From: an uncultured Candidatus Saccharibacteria bacterium
GTDB lineage: Bacteria > Patescibacteriota > Minisyncoccia > Phycocordibacterales > UBA2100
Direction of reading: 5' to 3'
Assembly: GCA_964437185.1 (NCBI GenBank)
Contig: CAYTFU010000005.1
Span: 2,528 to 66,527 of the forward strand
DNA: 64,000 bases
The notes beneath the pieces were generated by a model, which was not told the DNA's origin, searched no databases, and saw nothing but the letters and a program-made list of their open reading frames with translations. The position numbers and the translations under genes were made by a program. This document shows, piece by piece, positions 1,656 through 35,839 of this stretch. Every line of letters starts with the position of its first letter. Position 1 is the stretch's first letter.

Positions 1656-2144
1656 ATGGTGGCAATAGAGTATCCCTACCTCCCTACTGGCCGAACAATC
1701 GAGTACGTCGGCGAACAACATGCATGTATGCGGGAGGCGCGCGAGTACGCGCGCCTCCACTCCCTCGACCACGCGGTACCGACCGGCTCCATCGTTGTAA
1801 AAGACGAGCTCATTCTCGGTCGCGGCGCGAACGGCAGTTCGTACCACGCCGAGCACGGTTGCGAGCGAGTACGGCGCGGCGTCCCCACCGGCCACGGCTA
1901 TGAACTGTGCGAAGGATGCAGCCCCGTAAACCACTGCGAGCCACGCGCAATCGCCGACGCAATCGCACGCGGCGGAGCAACAGTTGGCGCGGATCTCTAT
2001 CTCTGGGGCCACTGGTGGTGCTGCGAGCCCTGCTGGCGAGCCATCATAGAAGCTGGCATTGATCACGTATACCTACTCGAAGGGAGCGAGAGACTGTTTA
2101 ACAAGGCGAATCCCGCCAATATTATCGGACGGCAGTTTTCATAG
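1656..2144 (+). CDS. dCMP (deoxycytidylate) deaminase, cytidine-deaminase-fold zinc enzyme
   Basis: HAEHGCE and PCEPC zinc-ligand motifs; start placed at MVAIEY within the 1452..2144 ORF; divergent from thyA. Confidence 0.8.
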   Translation: MVAIEYPYLPTGRTIEYVGEQHACMREAREYARLHSLDHAVPTGSIVVKDELILGRGANGSSYHAEHGCERVRRGVPTGHGYELCEGCSPVNHCEPRAIADAIARGGATVGADLYLWGHWWCCEPCWRAIIEAGIDHVYLLEGSERLFNKANPANIIGRQFS

Positions 2145-2158
2145 TACAATGGCCTCTC

Positions 2159-2791
2159 ATGCAGCGCGGGAAATTCATAGTTTTCGAAGGCGGTGATGGA
2201 TCCGGAAAAGATACCTTCATCGCGCGTCTTAAGGAAAAGTACGCTTCGCGCACAGACCTCGTCTTTACCCGCGACCCAGGCGGCACCGAGCTCGGCGAAG
2301 CGATCCGCAACCTCATACTTTCGCACTCCACAAAATCGATCAGCGTCCGTGCCGAAATTCTCGCATTTCACACCGCACGCGCGGAGCTCGTCGCGAGCGT
2401 GATCGCGCCCGCCCTCGCCGCAGGTAAAAGCGTTATTTCGAATCGATTTGAACTTTCAGCTTTCGCATACCAAATCTACGGACGAGAACACCCCGAGCTC
2501 TTGCCATTTGTGAAGCAGTTGAGTGAGTTTGTAATACAAGATTGCACACCCGATATGTGCATCTTTCTCGACGTGCCCCCGCGTCTTGCCCTGGAGCGCA
2601 CGCGACAGCGGCCCGAAGAGCCGAGCCGCTTCGACGAGGAGAGCGTTGCATTCCACGAACGCGTCAACGGCGGTTACAAAAAGCACCTAGCCGATTTCGG
2701 CCAGCCCGTGATTGTTGATTCCGGCCGCACCATCGACGAGGCGTGGCCAATCGTCGAGAAGGCAGTAGAATCAATTTTGCCAACGCTATGA
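2159..2791 (+). CDS. tmk: thymidylate kinase
   Basis: FIVFEGGDGSGK P-loop, 210 aa. Confidence 0.9.
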   Translation: MQRGKFIVFEGGDGSGKDTFIARLKEKYASRTDLVFTRDPGGTELGEAIRNLILSHSTKSISVRAEILAFHTARAELVASVIAPALAAGKSVISNRFELSAFAYQIYGREHPELLPFVKQLSEFVIQDCTPDMCIFLDVPPRLALERTRQRPEEPSRFDEESVAFHERVNGGYKKHLADFGQPVIVDSGRTIDEAWPIVEKAVESILPTL

Positions 2792-2831
2792 TTTAGCGTT
2801 CCAACATTTTAATAGCATCATTTATTTTTTT

Positions 2832-4100
2832 ATGAATGACTACGCACACATTCAAAAGCAAGATCCGGATGTTTTTAAAGTATTAGAGGGCGAAGAAACG
2901 CGCGAGGCCGAGGGGCTCGAGCTCATTCCGTCGGAAAATTACGTCTCAAAAGCCGTGCGCGAGGCCAACGGCTCGTGCTTTACCAACAAATATTCCGAAG
3001 GCTACCCGGGCAAGCGATACTACGGCGGCCAGACCTACACCGACGAGGTAGAGACAATTGCGATTGAGCGCGCGAAGAAGCTCTTCAACTGTCAATTCGC
3101 AAACGTGCAAACGCACGCAGGCGCGCCTGCGAACGTCGCAATGTACTTTGCTCTCCTTCAGCCAGGCGACACTGTGCTCGGCATGGATCTCTCGCACGGC
3201 GGCCACCTTACGCACGGACACCCTGTCACGTACCTAACGAAGATTTTCAACTTCGTCCGCTACAAGATGAAGGATCCCAACACGGGAGAAATTGATTACG
3301 ATGAGATGCGCAAAGTCGCTCTCGAACACAAGCCCAAAATCGTCCTCGCAGGTTTTTCCGCATACCCACGCGAGCTCAACTACGCGAAGTTTGTCGAGAT
3401 TGCCCGCGAAGTCGGTGCATACGCAATCATGGACGTCGCCCACATCGCAGGCCTTATCGCTGGCAAGGCGGTGAAAAGCCCGTTTGACTTTGGCTTCGAC
3501 GTGATGACATCGACTACGCACAAAACCCTTCGCGGCCCACGCGGCGGCCTCATCCTCACGCGCGAGAATGAAGAAATCGCGAAGAAAATCGACAAATCCG
3601 TCTTTCCCGGCCTCCAAGGCGGCCCCATCATGAACACCGTCGCAGCCAAAGCTGTGTGCTTCGGCGAAGCGCTCCTGCCATCGTTCCAGACCTACGCATC
3701 GCAAATCCTTAAAAACGCTAAGGCTATGGAAGAAGTCTTTCGCTCCAATAACATCCGCATGCTCACTGGCGGCACGAGCAACCACCTTATCCTCGCCGAC
3801 GTCTTCGGCAGCCTCGGTATGCCCGGCCAAGAAGCCGAGACGCTGCTCGACAAAGCGGGCATCACGCTCAACAAAAACTCGATTGCAGACGACACGCGCA
3901 AACCGATGGATCCTTCCGGCATCCGCTTCGGCACGCCCGCAATCACGACACGCGGATTCAAGGAAGCGGAGTGCAAACGCGTGGCTGAATTGATGGTGGA
4001 CGTCATGAAAAATAAAGACGACGCAAAAAAGCAGTCAGAAATCCGCGAAGAAATCCGCACCCTCTGCCTCAAATTTCCCATCCCCGAGTCGTTTGTGTAA
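2832..4100 (+). CDS. glyA: serine hydroxymethyltransferase
   Basis: 422 aa, SHMT blocks (PSENYVS, YSEGYPGKRYYGG, TTHKTLRGPRGG). Confidence 0.95.
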   Translation: MNDYAHIQKQDPDVFKVLEGEETREAEGLELIPSENYVSKAVREANGSCFTNKYSEGYPGKRYYGGQTYTDEVETIAIERAKKLFNCQFANVQTHAGAPANVAMYFALLQPGDTVLGMDLSHGGHLTHGHPVTYLTKIFNFVRYKMKDPNTGEIDYDEMRKVALEHKPKIVLAGFSAYPRELNYAKFVEIAREVGAYAIMDVAHIAGLIAGKAVKSPFDFGFDVMTSTTHKTLRGPRGGLILTRENEEIAKKIDKSVFPGLQGGPIMNTVAAKAVCFGEALLPSFQTYASQILKNAKAMEEVFRSNNIRMLTGGTSNHLILADVFGSLGMPGQEAETLLDKAGITLNKNSIADDTRKPMDPSGIRFGTPAITTRGFKEAECKRVAELMVDVMKNKDDAKKQSEIREEIRTLCLKFPIPESFV

Positions 4101-4223
4101 AGACGGATGAGGTGACCCTCTCTCGTGTCCGCGACTTGAGAAAAAAGTGTTTGCCAACAGTCGCGCTTAAGGCACTTTCTCATCTATTCGTTTCTGGCAG
4201 CTCTCCGGCGATCTAACGACCTA

Positions 4224-4321
4224 TTGTTTATCTCTGACGGCCGTCAAAGATAAACAATACTTCTCCGCAAGGAGATGAGAGGGCTTTTTAAAAATAACGA
4301 TTTCGTAAATCGTTATTTTTT
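4224..4321. terminator. two adjacent palindromes (17-bp arms 4224..4257; 14-bp arms 4291..4319 with flanking A/T tracts), bidirectional terminator candidate
   Basis: ttgtttatctctgacgg/ccgtcaaagataaacaa and aaaaataacgattt/aaatcgttattttt inverted repeats between convergent genes. Confidence 0.45.
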
Positions 4322-4466
4322 ATGAAAACCTCACACTCCTTTGTCTCTTTTGAATTCACCATTCGACTTCGCTCATGGTAAACCTGAATGATGCGCTCAA
4401 AAGAGTGGGGCATTTTTACGTGTTGCCCCAAGTCCACGGCGGGTTTCGGACCCGCAAAGATCAACC

Positions 4467-4955
4467 CTAGGACGCAGCGCGTGCCGCCGCGGCCCTTAAG
4501 GCCTCGGCGATCGCCGGTCCGCGGGCGTTTATTCGGTTTATCCAATCAACGCCCGCGATTGCGCCGTGGATCGCGGAATAGCCCTCCCAGCCATCGGCAA
4601 GCCGATGGACTGGCGCAGGTTTGTCGAGGAATTTGGCCGCCCTGTCCACGGCCTCCCGGAACTCCGGGAGGTACTCGAGGGCATTTTGCCCCCTCTTGGG
4701 CAGGGAGTCGTCATACTCCCCAAGGTCGACGAGGTCGACCCTCCGAATCGAGAGAGCGGGGTCGTCGGGCACAAAGACCCAACTTCCCCGAAGATACGAG
4801 CGATTTTGCTCGTCGTTAAATTTTTTCGCGCCCGAAATTTCAATCGCCCAGCCAGCTGGCCTGGGCGGGAGTGTTCCGCAGGCGTAGGTCGGCCAAACCT
4901 TGGCCGGCACTCTCGCGATCAAAAGAAATTTTCCCATGTCGTACATGTCAGTCAT
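4467..4955 (-). CDS. hypothetical protein in GC-rich island
   Basis: ORF 4467..4985, start placed at MTDMYDMG; region 4400..5090 visibly GC-richer than flanks; no recognisable motif. Confidence 0.4.
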   Translation of the reverse strand: MTDMYDMGKFLLIARVPAKVWPTYACGTLPPRPAGWAIEISGAKKFNDEQNRSYLRGSWVFVPDDPALSIRRVDLVDLGEYDDSLPKRGQNALEYLPEFREAVDRAAKFLDKPAPVHRLADGWEGYSAIHGAIAGVDWINRINARGPAIAEALRAAAARAAS

Positions 4956-5335
4956 TTCTCTGCCCTCCTTAAGGGCGTCTCGCACAATCCGTGTGCGAAT
5001 TCGGTTGGCCAGTGCTGTGCGCTGGCCGATGAACGTATCCCAGCAAGACCACCTTGATGGGCAATGAGCCCGCCCGAAGGCGGCAATTTAAGGATGCATT
5101 ACCATGCGATCCCTCTTTCCTGCACTAGGCGCACAGCCTACTGCGGGAGAAGAGGAATAACAGCGTGTACCTGAAGTACGCATGATTCCAGTTCTACCTA
5201 TTTATCTGTCAGAGAGCGCATCGGCGAGGCAATTTGGGCACAATGCCGAATGGCTTGTAAGTTTAACATGCTAACATGTGTTTGTCAAGTGAAATATGGC
5301 GAATTGTGGACATTTTTGGGGGTATAATCCTCCAA

Positions 5336-31801: not shown

Positions 31802-32422
31802 CTAACTGCTCAATACAACCACATCATTTTCCTTGCCGGCAAGGTCCCGCGGCTTGATCGTAAGCTTGTCGACGGGCTTTACACTTTCTTCTCCCGCTTC
31901 TTTCTGAAATTGCTTCAGTGATTTGTCGTCGAAGAGAATCGGTATCACGATTTTTGCTTCAAGCTTCACCGCAAGCTTCTGCGCCTCCGCAGGATTCAAT
32001 ACTCCATTGCCACCGATTGGCACGATGAGCACATCGGGCGCATCCATTTCGAGCACATCGCCAGGCAAATCAAGATCGCCGAGCGCGCCGAGGTAGAGAA
32101 TCGACATGCCGTCGAACTTTACTGAGTAAACTGTGTTGATGCGCGGAGTGCCGCCAAAATTTGAGCCTGTGCCAAACCCCGCGACCGTCGATTCTTTAAT
32201 CTCATATTCACCTGGGCCAGAAACGATAAATGGTTGACGCTCGCCTCTCGCCGCCTCATCACTCCCGTTCATATCGGGATGATTAAATGAAATGAATGCA
32301 ACGTCCGCACCAAAGTTGGTTGGCTTAAAATTCTTGGACGCTTTAGAAATCGGCCCAAACACGAGCGTCGTATCCCCCGCACTCGCGCGTATGCATGCAC
32401 CTTCGTGATACGACAATATCAT
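31802..32422 (-). CDS. MBL-fold metallo-hydrolase
   Basis: 206 aa, beta-lactamase-fold blocks (ISFNHPDMNGSD, VLIVPIGG). Confidence 0.6.
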   Translation of the reverse strand: MILSYHEGACIRASAGDTTLVFGPISKASKNFKPTNFGADVAFISFNHPDMNGSDEAARGERQPFIVSGPGEYEIKESTVAGFGTGSNFGGTPRINTVYSVKFDGMSILYLGALGDLDLPGDVLEMDAPDVLIVPIGGNGVLNPAEAQKLAVKLEAKIVIPILFDDKSLKQFQKEAGEESVKPVDKLTIKPRDLAGKENDVVVLSS

Positions 32423-32552
32423 AATGAATTTTACCTAGTGTCGACCAGTATAGCAGAAAGCCTATCCACCGCGAAAACATTGACGGATGAATAGAGAGAG
32501 TAGTTTAGCTGCACGGCGGAACAACTTCCTCCGTCGTAAAAGGAGGGTCGCC

Positions 32553-32600
32553 ATGGCTGAGGGGGCCATTAAGCGACAGTCGAAGAATCACCACAACTGA
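32553..32600 (+). CDS. 15-codon mini-ORF (MAEGAIKRQSKNHHN) with consensus SD, candidate leader peptide
   Basis: AGGAGGG 5 nt upstream of the ATG; followed by a second SD-led mini-ORF and alternative hairpins. Confidence 0.3.
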   Translation: MAEGAIKRQSKNHHN

Positions 32601-32612
32601 AAGGAGGTCACA

Positions 32613-32627
32613 ATGACCTGGACCTAG
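32613..32627 (+). CDS. 4-codon mini-ORF (MTWT) with consensus SD
   Basis: AGGAGG 5 nt upstream of the ATG; Trp codon; embedded in hairpin ggtcacaatgacc. Confidence 0.25.
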   Translation: MTWT

Positions 32628-32668
32628 GTACGATCTTTTCGAGAACAAGTCCCGTTTAATCCGCCCGA

Positions 32669-32720
32669 ACGGGCACTGGGCGGCATCTGTGGGATCCACG
32701 ATGCCGCCTTGAGCTTTTTT
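32669..32720 (+). terminator. Rho-independent terminator
   Basis: ggcggcatc/gatgccgcc 9-bp perfect stem followed by ttgagctttttt; the upstream segment ccgccc (32651..32656) can alternatively pair with gggcgg (32668..32673). Confidence 0.7.
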
Positions 32721-32814
32721 ATATACACAGAAAATCGCAAATCATCATTGACCGCGCGATTCGCCGTTCTAAACTTCTACGAGCTATCTGATCTTTCCAC
32801 AGGTGGCTGATGGT

Positions 32815-32838
32815 GCCGACCTGGGGTCGGCATTTTTT
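32815..32838 (+). terminator. second hairpin plus T-tract terminator
   Basis: gccgacc tgggg tcggc followed by atttttt. Confidence 0.5.
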
Positions 32839-33156
32839 AATTGGAAAGACGGCACCGGAAACCGCAATGGCAAAGAAACAGCCCGAGAAGGAACCTCCTC
32901 GCAAAACCATTTCTCTCTCTACTGGATTTTTTTTCGCGGGCAATGGTGGATTACTTTCGCAATCCATCAAGCGGCGTCCGAAAAAGCCGCCCAAAAAGAA
33001 ATCTTGAGACCGCGCCCGGAAGAGTTGCTAGCCACCGTGCGTAGTGGCGACTCTTCCGGGATTTCGTTTTTTACTCTCCCCCGCATCCCCACTTCACATT
33101 TAAATTCTCCTTGACCAAAAATCACAAAGGACATACGCTCGACTGTGGCAACCTGG

Positions 33157-33168
33157 TCTTTGAATATT
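33157..33168. repeat. 12-bp direct repeat tctttgaatatt, left flank of GC-rich island
   Basis: identical copy at 33818..33829, 661 bp away, at the other edge of the 66% GC segment. Confidence 0.5.
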
Positions 33169-33235
33169 GAAGTCAGGTCGCGGACGTTGGGGGATGTCTC
33201 TCAGCGTTCACTACTCAACCCGCATGGAGGAAAAC

Positions 33236-33724
33236 ATGCGAAAACTTGGATTGGCTACCGTGGCAGGGGCGATGATGCTCGCCTTCGCCATGACGCACGC
33301 GCCCCCTTCGATGGCGCAGTGCATCACCGGCACCAATGCCGGACTTTCCGCGATCAATCCCGGCCCGCCAGTGTTGCCGGAAGCGATCGCGCTGGCTGAC
33401 CAAGCTCCGGTCGGCCAGGCTACCGCGACGGAGTCAACCTTCCTGGGGCAGATTCCGTGGGCGTCCGAAGCCATCGCTCCCCTCGCCGGCAACATGGCGA
33501 AAAGCGCGGTGGTGCCGACTTCCATCACCACCCCGCGCGGTGGCGCGACGGGCCAGGTGATGGTGCGCCTCCCGACAACCACGCAGGCCGATTCGGCTGT
33601 GCATCAACTCGGCGCGGAGGGCTTTATCGGGCCGCCCTCGGCGTTGCAACACGGCGCGGCGATCGTCGGCAACGCGCCGTTCACCAAGATCGCCCTGGTC
33701 GGCCAGATGGCCTATGCTGGCTGA
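33236..33724 (+). CDS. secreted hypothetical protein in 66%-GC island
   Basis: signal peptide MRKLGLATVAGAMMLAFAMTHAPPSMA; GC3-rich codon usage unlike neighbours; start placed at the internal ATG of the 33167..33724 ORF. Confidence 0.5.
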   Translation: MRKLGLATVAGAMMLAFAMTHAPPSMAQCITGTNAGLSAINPGPPVLPEAIALADQAPVGQATATESTFLGQIPWASEAIAPLAGNMAKSAVVPTSITTPRGGATGQVMVRLPTTTQADSAVHQLGAEGFIGPPSALQHGAAIVGNAPFTKIALVGQMAYAG

Positions 33725-33817
33725 TGCAAGTCGCCACCGGTCAGGCACTGATCGCCTGACCAAATAAGGGGGTGCGGCATCGAAAACTATGCTACTCGAT
33801 GTCGCACCTTCCCCCTT

Positions 33818-33829
33818 TCTTTGAATATT
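33818..33829. repeat. 12-bp direct repeat tctttgaatatt, right flank of GC-rich island
   Basis: see 33157..33168. Confidence 0.5.
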
Positions 33830-33989
33830 TTGAGAAATATTTTTCTTGCGCTCACGCAACTCATCATATATAGTATGCGAAGTCCCGATAGGGACTTTAT
33901 TAATTAATAGAGCGTTCGGTAAAGCTTCCTCGCAGACAGTCACGGTAGCGCAACGGTAGCGCAGGCGGGATAGTCCGAACCAAATTACA

Positions 33990-35114
33990 ATGGTAAAAGA
34001 AAAAGAGGAGAAGAAGGTTATTTTAACGGAAGAGAACGAAGTGGAAGTGGCGGCGGTCAAGCAAGGGCCGATGGCGGAGTTGCTTGAGAAATCAGCGACG
34101 CCACCGTCGATGGATGACGTCGTAGAAGGCCCGGTGGTCGCTATCGGCCGCGCGCGAGTTTTCATCGATCTTGCGCCGTTTGGTACGGGAATTATTTATG
34201 GTCGCGAATACCTCTCGGCACGAGAAGCACTCAAAAATGTAAACATCGGCGATACGGTAACCGCGAAGGTCGTCGGATTCGACAATGCAGAAGGGTACAT
34301 CGAAGTCTCGCTGCGCGAAGCACGCCAAGCAGTCATTTGGAATGAGGCTGAGCAGGCGATGCAGAAGAAGACGGTGTTTGAGCTTCCTGTCACCGATGCA
34401 AATAAAGGCGGACTCATCATTACGTGGAACGGCCTTGCAGGATTCCTTCCCGCTTCACAGCTCGCACCAGCGCACTACCCGCGCGTGCCGGACGGAGACA
34501 AAGACAAGATTTTTGTTGAGCTCAAAAAGATGATCGGCACGAAGATCGAGGTCATGGTCATCACCGCAAGCCCGAAAGAGCAGAAGCTTATCTTCAGCGA
34601 GCGTGGCGCAGGTACGACGGAGCGTTCATCACTCGTGGAGAAATATCACATTGGCGATGCGCTCGATGGCGTGGTCACGGGCGCTACGGAATTCGGAGTC
34701 TTCGTGAAGCTCGAAGAAGGACTTGAAGGACTCGTGCACATTTCTGAAATGGATTGGGCTCTCGTCGAGAATCCAAAGACGCGCTATCGCGCAGGTGAGC
34801 ACGTGAAGGTGAAGGTGATCGAGATCAAGGAGGGCAAAATCTCACTTTCGATCAAGGCGCTCATGGATGACCCGTGGAAAGCAGCTGCGGCGAAATACAA
34901 AAAGGATCAGCGTGTCGAGGCAGTTGTCATCAAGTACAACAAGCACGGAGCACTCGCATCGATCGAAGAAGGAGTCGCTGGCCTCGTCCACGTCTCGGAA
35001 TTTGCAAACGAAGAAGATCTTCGCGCGAAGCTCGAGCTCGGCAAGGTGTATCCGTTTACCATCACATTCTTCGAGCCGAAGGATCGTCGGATGACATTGA
35101 AGCCGATCGTATAA
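33990..35114 (+). CDS. rpsA: 30S ribosomal protein S1 (four S1 domains)
   Basis: 374 aa, repeated S1 OB-fold blocks (GxV.G.V..I..FGxFV). Confidence 0.9.
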   Translation: MVKEKEEKKVILTEENEVEVAAVKQGPMAELLEKSATPPSMDDVVEGPVVAIGRARVFIDLAPFGTGIIYGREYLSAREALKNVNIGDTVTAKVVGFDNAEGYIEVSLREARQAVIWNEAEQAMQKKTVFELPVTDANKGGLIITWNGLAGFLPASQLAPAHYPRVPDGDKDKIFVELKKMIGTKIEVMVITASPKEQKLIFSERGAGTTERSSLVEKYHIGDALDGVVTGATEFGVFVKLEEGLEGLVHISEMDWALVENPKTRYRAGEHVKVKVIEIKEGKISLSIKALMDDPWKAAAAKYKKDQRVEAVVIKYNKHGALASIEEGVAGLVHVSEFANEEDLRAKLELGKVYPFTITFFEPKDRRMTLKPIV

Positions 35115-35133
35115 ACGGATCAGAGAAGCAGAA

Positions 35134-35165
35134 AGAGGCCGCCCCCTTGGGGGCGGCCTCTTTTA
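35134..35165 (+). terminator. Rho-independent terminator after rpsA
   Basis: agaggccgccccc/gggggcggcctct 13-bp stem followed by tttt. Confidence 0.7.
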
Positions 35166-35180
35166 ATTGAGGGAGTTGAT

Positions 35181-35194
35181 CTGATTCATCGCGC
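35181..35194. repeat. 14-bp direct repeat ctgattcatcgcgc (degenerate copy of pth 3' end), outer left boundary of cassette
   Basis: identical to 35983..35996, which lies inside the last codons of pth (...RAMNQ); the left copy would encode ...GAMNQ. Confidence 0.65.
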
Positions 35195-35202
35195 CCTCTA
35201 TA

Positions 35203-35242
35203 GTGTTGTTTATAAATTGCTATAGCGTTAAACAAACAACAT
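35203..35242. repeat. hairpin repeat A1 (24-nt core gtgttgtttataaattgctatagc plus imperfect palindromic arms)
   Basis: core identical to 35848..35871; arms tgttgtttat / taaacaaacaaca. Confidence 0.7.
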
Positions 35243-35839
35243 TTAATCGAGAGGCAGTCTGAAATGCCGACGCAGCGGCGCATCAAATTCAATAGCATCT
35301 GCGATGATATAGATAAGCTCTCTACCGATTTTGAGATCGAGCTTTAATAGCGCGACTACCTCCTCACAGTCATACGGAAGAACCCACACGCTATCCTGAA
35401 GCCGAAAAAAACCCATTCTTGAGACGAGTAGTCGAACGCGTTCCCGCAACCCCTTTCTTTTTTCCTCAATATCGAAAATCACGATGCGCCATTTGCGGTC
35501 CCATCGACGAGGCTTTTTGATCTGAGTTTTACCGAGAGAGGCGCGTCGAGCCTCCTGCTCGCCTTTTTGCGTAAGTCGGGGAACATTTCTGCCGTTGAGA
35601 TTTCTGAATTCGATCAGTCCCTTGCGCTTCATTCGAGAGAGGGTCTCCCGCAATCGGCGACGCGGATCTCGCTTACTCATCCAATCGGGATCGCAGTGCT
35701 TCAAAAGCTGGAGCGCATTTGGCGCAGCCATTGCAACAACTGCGATACCCGTCGCCGAGAAGGCGGCAAGTAACATATTTTCTATGTTCACCCGCCTCGT
35801 CCTTTTCTTGGATTCTGATTCCATCCGCCCCACAAGCAC
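35243..35839 (-). CDS. winged-helix-like N-terminal domain fused to a Cas2/VapD-like C-terminal domain (PaaX-like architecture), paralog A
   Basis: 198 aa, GTG start; N-terminal segment NMLLAAFSATGIAVVAMAAPNALQLLKH; C-terminal WRIVIFDIEEKRKGLRERVRLLVSRMGFFRLQDSVWVLPYDCEEV matches the Cas2 core pattern (beta1 hydrophobic-x-x-FD, basic helix, Q-x-SV-F/W); paralog at 57452..58039. Confidence 0.55.
   Translation of the reverse strand: MLVGRMESESKKRTRRVNIENMLLAAFSATGIAVVAMAAPNALQLLKHCDPDWMSKRDPRRRLRETLSRMKRKGLIEFRNLNGRNVPRLTQKGEQEARRASLGKTQIKKPRRWDRKWRIVIFDIEEKRKGLRERVRLLVSRMGFFRLQDSVWVLPYDCEEVVALLKLDLKIGRELIYIIADAIEFDAPLRRHFRLPLD

Follow-up and report, generated by a model that had tools for sequence, protein, structure and literature searches.

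What are two tiny open reading frames (ORFs), each headed by a strong Shine-Dalgarno (SD) sequence and followed by hairpins and a terminator-like element, doing in front of a gene for ribosomal protein S1? They lie in a stretch of 64,000 nucleotides (nt) of GenBank contig CAYTFU010000005.1 (assembly GCA_964437185.1; the whole stretch is hereafter called the window), and the host genome is placed in Candidatus Kaiserbacteria (Parcubacteria, candidate phyla radiation (CPR)). A preliminary description of this DNA took them for a leader-peptide attenuator with His-His and Trp codons, possibly split from an rpsA operon by an insertion. The element, which we call unit A, sits within a 1567-nt gap with a metallo-β-lactamase (MBL)-fold gene on one side and the S1 gene on the other, and it is the first of two tandem plus-strand units, A and B, that occupy this hypervariable accessory region. 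Our results indicate that unit A has counterparts in the same gap of related genomes and that its translation signals are the parts most faithfully kept. We tentatively read it as a lineage-specific, translation-dependent small-ORF RNA that has been shortened and displaced in this genome, a reading to which we give slightly less than an even chance.

The preliminary description was accurate about the letters themselves: AGGAGGG stands 5 nt ahead of the ATG of a 15-codon ORF (ORF1), AGGAGG stands 5 nt ahead of the ATG of the four-codon MTWT (ORF2), and no ORF longer than these two is found ahead of the second terminator (Table 1). The stop codon UGA of ORF1 overlaps the second SD sequence (SD2) in UGAAAGGAGGU, a layout that would be suited to termination and reinitiation. 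Farther along lies the GAUCUUUUCGA box, to which related GAUCUUUC boxes were seen by eye in L003, L092, L081 and L001 (L-numbers denote related loci, and W the window copy of unit A); a strict 17-mer pattern search for the box matched only L003 and L082. The site of the terminal hairpin (32678-32720) was left uncalled by a consensus terminator scan because its T-run is displaced by 6 nt from the stem, and a comparable spacer of 4-6 nt ahead of the T-run was seen by eye in L001, L002, L003, L007, L009, L014, L081 and L092. T-runs follow the hairpins on the plus strand only. Compared with shuffled sequences, unit A folds with z-scores of -3.1 to -3.3 on the plus strand and -3.8 to -3.9 on the minus strand, which places it at about the 5th to 8th percentile of 110 windows of 220 nt drawn at random from this DNA (mean z -0.69, standard deviation 1.46), that is, structured but not extreme. 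AAGGAGG is found 13 times in the window, where 8.2 copies are expected; five of the 13 copies were read to have an ATG within 5-9 nt, and two of these five lie 61 nt apart inside the element.

Standard searches gave little indication that the element is conserved. About 60 species representatives keep the order gyrA, hypothetical gene, MBL, gap, S1, pth, with gap lengths of 0 to 2068 nt, and about 160 related loci supplied MBL-S1 intergenic regions for comparison. When the whole gap was compared with the 160 related loci by blastn and tblastx, the matches were about 130 nt directly upstream of S1, a promoter-like piece in L001, and four contigs of the same population, 100% identical and derived from different samples. 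Rfam 15 matched only tRNAs in the window, returned nothing of at least 18 bits in 32380-34020 at E-values up to 10, and found no match in 17 related loci that include homologous units, while ARAGORN detected no tmRNA in the window or the homologous loci; these nulls exclude tmRNA, RNase P RNA, SRP RNA, 6S RNA and known riboswitches and leaders. A protein search found no homologue of the ORF1 peptide, and phage and plasmid collections contained no match to the region. A pattern scan of viral contigs gave three matches inside coding regions (LTDEQRE), which we attribute to chance.

Direct reading of the relatives' gaps revealed a recurrent TTGAC(G)-N15-17-TAGnnT promoter, located back-to-back with the MBL promoter or deeper in the gap. 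Written as TTGAC.-N15-17-TAG..T, it heads units in L001, L002, L003, L004, L007, L009 and L014, and also in L081, L082, L092, L094, L099, L101 and others. The W unit aligns blockwise with those of L009 (identical to L098; MBL 79% identical) and L101 (MBL 80%), namely in the start region, in the context of the first SD sequence (SD1), AGGAGG(G)TC.GCCATG, in GAAGAA..TCACC and chiefly in CTGAA(A)GGAGGTCACAATGAnnTGGnCnTAGG. The most conserved block, which runs from the ORF1 stop through SD2 and ORF2 to the next G, is 86-90% identical to L009 and L101 over 28-29 nt, with unalignable flanks, and was recovered by blastn among the extracted units with E-values of 2e-3 and 9e-5. L009 and L101 agree at 25 of 26 positions of this block and both encode MNWP*, the sole difference inside ORF2 being synonymous (CCT/CCC). 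A profile built from the three sequences (W, L009 and L101) behaves consistently, and a search of about 1 Mb of related loci with six mismatches allowed turns up the block in three distinct sequences only. W, L092, L009 and L101 have the SD1 context GGAGGGTCGCC(A)ATG in common. The preservation of the SD2/ORF2 block in other species is the decisive evidence beyond chance, and these alignments show that the element is conserved below the sensitivity of BLAST, with the tightest constraint on its translation signals: SD1 with the hairpin around the first start codon (the AUG1 hairpin), and the long SD2 with its mini-ORF. A lack of conservation, which according to the preliminary description would have counted against its reading, was not observed; the mini-ORF signals proved to be the best-conserved parts.

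The family appears to be wider than these three, and mosaic. The units of L002/L114, L003, L081, L082, L092, L094, L099, L007, L014 and L001 form one single-linkage similarity cluster and follow the plan of the W unit. Their ORF1 takes the form MASPPQ*, MTPPG*, MSTIPPE*, MKPPL*, MLPPGK.. or that of a 30-33-residue peptide ending in (Q/P)ESPP.., and their SD2 has the form (U)AGAAAGG(A/G)GGUCA, followed by an ORF2 of 3-7 codons (MKKPGK*, MNKPNKL*, MPDQT* or MVES*). S/T-P-P is encoded by ORF1 in eight members, and the third positions of the Pro-Pro codons vary among members (CCG/CCA/CCC; CCT/CCG), as expected under coding constraint. L087 and L131 have a conserved ORF1 of 37-38 residues together with an ORF2 encoding MRL*. 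Eight of 11 members have a predicted hairpin at the start codon, with differing stem sequences (UGCCAU/AUGGCA, UGUCAU/AUGACA, UUGACC/GGUCAA, UUGGCA/UGCUGA and AUGGCU/GGCCAU), and the homologous units are structured, with z-scores of -1.9 to -5.5. With up to one mismatch, GAAAGGAGGTCA was found five times in related gaps, in addition to the W copy, as against three times in the remaining 1.7 Mb or so on both strands.

W has the features by which the family is recognized: it lies between the MBL and S1 genes on the S1 strand, has the TTGACG-N15-17-TAGnnT promoter, and carries a pair of consecutive small ORFs, each led by an SD, of which the second spans 3-7 codons and follows a GAAAGGAGGU-like SD. 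The link between the W trio and the Pro-Pro cluster is suggested by locus, promoter, architecture and short motifs. The large 3' domain of other members (CUCAACCGCGAGAGCGGGGUU block and CGGUYCUAGAUGRACCG hairpin) is absent from the units of W, L009 and L101; the window copy is a short form of unit A. In L003, L082 and L092, and also in L007 and L014, the 3' domain contains the block GCGCCUCAACCGC(GAGA/UAAC)GCGGGGUU; the stem of the CGGUYCUAGAUGRACCG hairpin covaries, and the terminal stem GGGGGUG...CACCCCC is followed by an ACCA-like spacer and a U-run. These larger members constitute an unclassified structured RNA of 300-480 nt. L001, the closest relative, contains a pair of unit-A-like RNAs whose bodies are unrelated (z -5.5 and -4.0); GGAAAGGAGGUG, an 11-nt complement of the usual 16S rRNA 3' tail, lies in one of the pair.

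Table 1. Features of the MBL-S1 gap and its flanking genes (positions in the window).
Feature	Position	Strand	Remarks
MBL-fold gene	31802-32422	minus	Pfam Lactamase_B_3; divergent from unit A
MBL promoter, -10 box	32447..32452	minus	TATACT, preceded by TGC
Unit A	~32480-32720	plus	promoter, SD1, ORF1, SD2, ORF2, terminator
Unit A promoter	32480-32485 (-35), 32501-32506 (-10-like)	plus	TTGACG, 15-nt spacer, TAGTTT
Unit A transcript (putative)	32512..32720	plus	~210 nt, structured, two SD-led mini-ORFs
CCUCC	32528-32532	plus	pairs with GGAGG of SD1 (32542-32546) in minimum free energy (MFE) and centroid structures
SD1	32541-32547	plus	AGGAGGG; 5 nt, then ATG at 32553
AUG1 hairpin (predicted)	32547..32577	plus	outer GUCGC/GCGAC, inner AUGGCU/GGCCAU
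ORF1	32553-32600	plus	15 codons, MAEGAIKRQSKNHHN, stop TGA; shortened relative to the 38-57-codon ORF1 of L009/L101
Most conserved block	32598..32628	plus	ORF1 stop, SD2, spacer, ORF2, next G
Long SD2	32599-32608	plus	GAAAGGAGGU; 10-nt 'super-SD' complementary to the usual 16S rRNA 3' tail
SD2	32602-32607	plus	AGGAGG; 5 nt, then ATG at 32613
ORF2	32613-32627	plus	4 codons, MTWT, AUG ACC UGG ACC UAG; G follows the stop
GAUCUUUUCGA box	32632..32642	plus	MFE pairing with UCGAAGAAUC (32580-32589, within ORF1)
Hairpin H4	32649..32676	plus	GUCCCGUU/AACGGG-C-AC; -9.3 kcal/mol; CCGCCC (32661-32666) in loop
Terminal hairpin	32678-32709	plus	-24.3 kcal/mol; 10-bp outer stem including one G-U, inner 4-bp stem
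Unit A terminator T-run	32715-32720	plus	T6 after TTGAGC; begins 6 nt past the stem
Unit B	~32748-32849	plus	conserved 5' leader with promoter
Unit B promoter	32748..32775	plus	TTGACC, 16 nt, TAAACT
Unit B first box	32789-32798	plus	UGAUCUUUCC, invariant
Unit B GC hairpin	32812-32834	plus	called as terminator; T6 at 32833-32838
Unit B second box	32843-32849	plus	GGAAAGA, complementary to UCUUUCC of first box
46-residue ORF	32867..33007	plus	MAKKQPEKEPPRK...KKKS; at the position of the relatives' secreted-protein gene
Hairpin and T-run after 46-residue ORF	33015-33072	plus	
Promoter-like sequence	33108-33136		TTGACC-17-TACGCT; directly outside the GC-island repeat
GC-island orphan ORF	33236-33724		SD, signal-peptide-like N-terminus
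S1 promoter	33846-33874	plus	TTGCGC-17-TATAGT
S1 structured 5' untranslated region (UTR)	~33875-33989	plus	without SD
S1 (rpsA-like) gene	33990-35114	plus	three S1 domains

Is unit A, then, a classical trp/his attenuator that senses His or Trp charging and has been separated from an rpsA operon by an insertion? Such an attenuator needs a short 5' ORF with a ribosome-binding site, a conserved cluster of regulatory codons, mutually exclusive helices of which the first segment overlaps the end of the ORF, and a promoterless operon downstream. Short ORFs are provided by SD1/ORF1 and SD2/ORF2, whose signals are kept in L009 and L101, and hairpins and a terminator are present as well; furthermore, W, L009 and L101 all retain the Trp codon of ORF2, and homologous units adjoin the S1 promoter in relatives. 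The codon cluster, however, is lacking: ORF1 has two His codons and ORF2 a single Trp codon, His-His is absent from ORF1 of L009 and L101, ORF1 has anywhere between 5 and 57 codons in the family, and the mini-ORFs of other members are unrelated (ORF2 encoding MRL*, MKKPGK* or MPDQT*, for example). The proposed antiterminator pairs CCGCCC with GGGCGG, which lie at 32661-32666 and 32678-32683, both 10 nt higher than the preliminary description had placed them. Although this helix of 6-7 bp reaches -11.2 kcal/mol when folded alone, the fold constrained to contain it has -22.4 kcal/mol compared to -36.5 kcal/mol, so that forcing the pairing costs 14 kcal/mol, and its pair probability is 0.0002; in both the MFE structure and the ensemble, CCGCCC lies in the loop of H4 and the terminator is fully formed. 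No equivalent alternative pairing was seen in L009 or L101, so exclusive helices overlapping the end of an ORF are wanting, a comparison made on three sequences only. The stop codon of ORF2 (32625-32627) is 34 nt upstream of CCGCCC (32661), which is beyond the reach of a terminating ribosome, given the size of ribosome footprints. As for a promoterless operon, what follows in the window is another promoter and leader, and S1, a gene with no part in amino-acid biosynthesis, is preceded in every relative by a promoter of its own and a conserved structured leader. With three of the four defining features missing, we regard an attenuator of this kind as highly improbable.

The second terminator, named in the preliminary description as one of the features between the leader and rpsA, is part of a different element. 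The site at 32812-32838 has the form that defines a Rho-independent terminator, and it belongs to unit B, where it is part of the 5' leader of the next gene, separate from unit A. The unit B leader (32789..32849) aligns with that of six relatives (L002, L003, L081, L093, L114 and L135), in which it precedes signal-peptide protein genes, and the GGAAAG(A) box is followed by an SD and then an AUG. The stem sequences of the hairpin differ between members, and its U-rich tract is T6 in the window. The invariant boxes are partly enforced by the search pattern, and show no covariation in either direction; a column-wise covariation analysis of the hairpin was dropped since the alignment was out of register.

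The idea that an insertion separated the unit from S1 stands in part. In L101, L009, L082, L094, L087 and L002-L004, the T-run of unit A leads into the S1 promoter or ends a few bases before it. The minimal layout is that of L101, whose gap of 573 nt accommodates the MBL promoter, the unit, and both promoter and leader of S1, and L009 is similar; relatives in which the unit directly adjoins the S1 promoter, as the preliminary description envisaged, therefore exist. In the window, about 1.1 kb extra lies between unit A and the S1 promoter, comprising unit B, the 46-residue orphan ORF with its hairpin and T-run, and a GC-rich orphan gene. What does not stand is that S1 was deprived of its leader, because S1 has its own. 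The S1 promoter and 5' UTR are common to more than 20 Kaiserbacteria and to all relatives with or without unit A. In 17 sequences, the three helices of this UTR are 86% paired, with 13 of 16 pairs changed on both sides, values that were reached by none of 500 shuffles; it has no Rfam match and is a candidate leader for autoregulation of S1. Where the gap measures 127-220 nt, relatives keep the S1 leader and lack unit A, which is accordingly an optional upstream neighbor of S1 rather than its leader. The motif CGGTAGCGCA is tandemly duplicated in the S1 leader of the window. Of the random windows sampled, the one directly past the S1 stop, at 35120-35339, shows the strongest structure (z about -5 on both strands).

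The GC-rich island at 33157-33829 that the preliminary description had pointed out is real, with a GC content of 0.62-0.70 and a perfect 12-nt direct repeat, TCTTTGAATATT, at either flank (33157-33168 and 33818-33829). Its ORF matches only itself among 5.8 billion proteins, and the 46-residue ORF has no homologue in the same collection or among the related loci. A minus-strand ORF of 64 residues was considered as a pseudogene and rejected for want of a homologue, and a frame open for 60 codons past the ORF2 stop resembles only short repeated stretches in three repetitive proteins, which we judged spurious. Type I/III toxin-antitoxin systems, retrons, integron attC sites and tandem repeats were likewise discarded, as no repeats, reverse transcriptase or hydrophobic peptide were found.

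On the other side of unit A, the -10 box of the divergent MBL promoter is a piece of a bidirectional promoter module of about 65 nt that is common to L001 and L101; the basis for this module is that CCAGTATAGCAGAAA..CC is kept beside the first minus-strand gene. In L001, apparent nucleotidyltransferase/HEPN-like genes were seen by eye between the MBL gene and the shared promoter module (positions 2040-4000 of that locus). The gaps of L017, L022, L093, L095, L100, L106 and L153 have the same promoter type ahead of SD-led genes for small signal-peptide proteins, and several of these secreted-protein loci have a common 5' UTR consisting of a hairpin, UUUUGYAUA and then GGAGGAAAC. The recurrence of one promoter type ahead of small signal-peptide genes makes the MBL-S1 gap a hotspot for variable secreted-protein genes in Kaiserbacteria.

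Strong SDs are unusual in this genome. Based on crude longest-ORF gene calls, 65 of 72 long ORFs have no 4-mer SD ahead of their first start codon; since ordinary genes are mostly SD-less, strong SDs are a special feature of the MBL-S1 accessory region. A strong SD also precedes the GC-island ORF (GGAGGAAAACATG) and a further GC-rich ORF near 4950. By the same crude calls, many start codons lie 0-10 nt past a TATAAT-like box, often TGnTATAAT, as exemplified by gyrA (ctgcTATAAttg), and this spacing suggests widespread leaderless or short-leader mRNAs. With z-scores of -4 to -6 on both strands, the stretch at 4100-5000 of the window is strongly structured and resembles a further accessory island; it has a GC-rich minus-strand ORF of about 162 residues with the SD AAGGAGGGCAGAGAAATG at about 4970-4953.

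Our favored reading of unit A is that its RNA would act through its own translation. Ribosomes would open the AUG1 hairpin, translate ORF1 up to its UGA, which shares nucleotides with SD2, and pass on to ORF2. Ribosomes sitting on roughly 32550-32640 would compete with the pairing of 32580-32589 to the GAUCUUUUCGA box (32632-32642), and could thereby set the folding of the downstream hairpin and terminator, deciding between transcript end and read-through or affecting RNA stability. In relatives, read-through would feed S1. The comparisons and folding calculations show homology, architecture, genomic position and the energies of the pairings proposed, whereas we infer transcription, translation, regulatory output and this mechanism of ribosome occupancy. 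The 15-codon ORF1 and the insert of about 1.1 kb make the window copy an orphan, displaced and possibly degenerating, which may still make a small RNA or peptide or may be a relic.

Several points weigh against this reading. The transcription start, the 3' end and translation of the unit are predictions from sequence; W, L009 and L101 are the only three distinct members of the W type and have no significant direct alignment with the Pro-Pro cluster; and ORF1 is poorly conserved and shortened here, consistent with decay. The z-score of the unit is only about two standard deviations beyond the window background, and folding around SD2 is inconsistent across members (z 0 to -1.9); a conserved helix enclosing SD2 and ORF2 was indeed dropped, as the folds of seven members disagree. 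Moreover, three further hairpin/T-run sites lie between unit A and S1 in the window, and a role in the control of S1 is unnecessary, considering that the S1 promoter is found everywhere and that some relatives have no unit A.

A translation-dependent RNA has to be set against other explanations, among them the micro-proteins or small RNA that the preliminary description offered as a possible alternative. Unit A could be a plain small-protein gene whose product is the ORF1 peptide, perhaps together with ORF2, the rest being structured mRNA with a long 3' UTR. Its SDs are strong, L087 and L131 have a conserved 37-38-residue ORF1 of the form ..AA[ML]Q[ST]IDMA..IAKT*, (Q/P)ESPP is common to the ORF1 of L081, L082 and L094, and the Pro-Pro third positions vary as they would in a coding sequence. 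On the other hand, ORF1 of the window has only 15 residues and no detectable similarity to other ORF1s, its length across the family is as variable as noted above, the best-conserved block is SD2 with a four-codon ORF rather than ORF1, and a peptide of 4-7 residues would hardly be a folded product, which leaves a small-protein gene quite unlikely. The mini-ORFs would be incidental if GAAAGGAGGU instead served in trans, binding the 16S 3' end or the 30S subunit as a 'sponge' or pairing with target mRNAs. A 10-11-nt complement of the usual 16S 3' tail is indeed present in W, L092 and L001, with close variants elsewhere, in a genome that rarely uses SDs for its own genes, and unit A has a promoter and terminator of its own and no downstream gene. 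Yet the SD is kept together with an AUG at canonical spacing and a nearby in-frame stop, pointing to real initiation, no target is known, and the complementarity was judged on the usual 16S 3' tail, which may differ from that of the host; we consider a trans-acting role improbable.

The window copy might also be a nonfunctional relic, the decaying remnant of a family member in a recombination-prone accessory region, with its signals merely persisting. It is the shortest member (226 nt compared to 260-590 nt as extracted, some of the latter running past their own terminator), with a truncated ORF1, without the 3' domain of larger members, displaced from S1 by insertions and surrounded by orphan ORFs. 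Decay is harder to reconcile with the intact state of SD1, the AUG1 hairpin, SD2, ORF2, promoter and terminator, with the 86-90% identity of SD2/ORF2 to species whose flanking proteins are only about 80% identical, and with the complete identity of the four contigs from different samples, and we therefore hold a relic to be unlikely. Going beyond the lineage-specific RNA that we favor, unit A could represent an undescribed class of CPR regulatory RNA that reports translation status through two mini-ORFs and an unusually long anti-16S SD, its output being altered termination of its own transcript, altered read-through into S1 or the titration of 30S subunits, in bacteria with ordinary genes that are for the most part SD-less or leaderless. 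Such a class may be fast-evolving and ancestrally located directly upstream of S1, and may use Pro-Pro stalling motifs in many members; this broader proposal is speculative, and we lend it rather low credence.

If functional, unit A would add a translation-sensing small-ORF RNA to the very sparse list of CPR regulatory RNAs and would connect it with S1, of all proteins the one that matters most for initiation on SD-less mRNAs. The genome moreover offers a natural contrast between housekeeping genes that are almost SD-less and accessory units with SDs of 7-11 nt. The element looked unconserved to BLAST, Rfam and protein searches and was recognized only via syntenic intergenic regions. Its practical importance for the window itself is modest, as the copy is short, displaced from S1 and possibly decaying.

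Among known systems, the trpL/hisL/pheL attenuators resemble unit A in having a tiny SD-led ORF ahead of hairpins and a terminator-like hairpin, such that ribosome position may control folding; unit A differs in having no run of regulatory codons, no conserved terminator/antiterminator alternative, a stop codon too far from the proposed antiterminator segment, and no biosynthetic operon downstream. Translational attenuation of the ermC/cat type similarly involves a leader ORF with a second SD and AUG directly behind it, which local structure can mask, but the 'regulated' ORF of unit A has 3-7 codons, no resistance gene follows, and SD2 is not consistently sequestered. Salmonella mgtL and mgtP are leader ORFs with proline codons. 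As in such Pro-Pro leaders, a stalled ribosome could gate downstream RNA folding in the unit A family, although ORF1 of the window has no Pro-Pro and no regulated gene has been identified for unit A. Many members have an ORF1 ending in S/T-P-P-(G/Q/E/I), which is of the type that stalls ribosomes without elongation factor P (EF-P), as treated in a report on EF-P and transcription-translation coupling (PMC5021804) and in one on the SPP stalling motif (PMC12407103).

The bar minigenes of phage lambda and other start-stop mini-ORFs have 2-6 codons behind a strong SD, like ORF2. Minigenes of the bar type cause drop-off of peptidyl-tRNA, with effects that hinge on peptidyl-tRNA hydrolase. The conserved neighborhood of unit A includes pth, perhaps by coincidence, and there is no evidence of toxicity or of a pth link. 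The leader through which E. coli rpsA is autoregulated finds its parallel in the neighboring S1 5' UTR, not in unit A, that UTR being structured, SD-less and located ahead of S1, with helices that differ from the three hairpins of the E. coli leader. SgrS/SgrT, RNAIII/hld and SR1/SR1P are independently transcribed, structured small RNAs with a small translated ORF, as unit A would be, while unit A differs from them in having no known base-pairing target, sequence similarity or Rfam match. Unit A, a member of no described family, resembles an RNA of the leader-peptide or upstream-ORF type or a dual-function small RNA.

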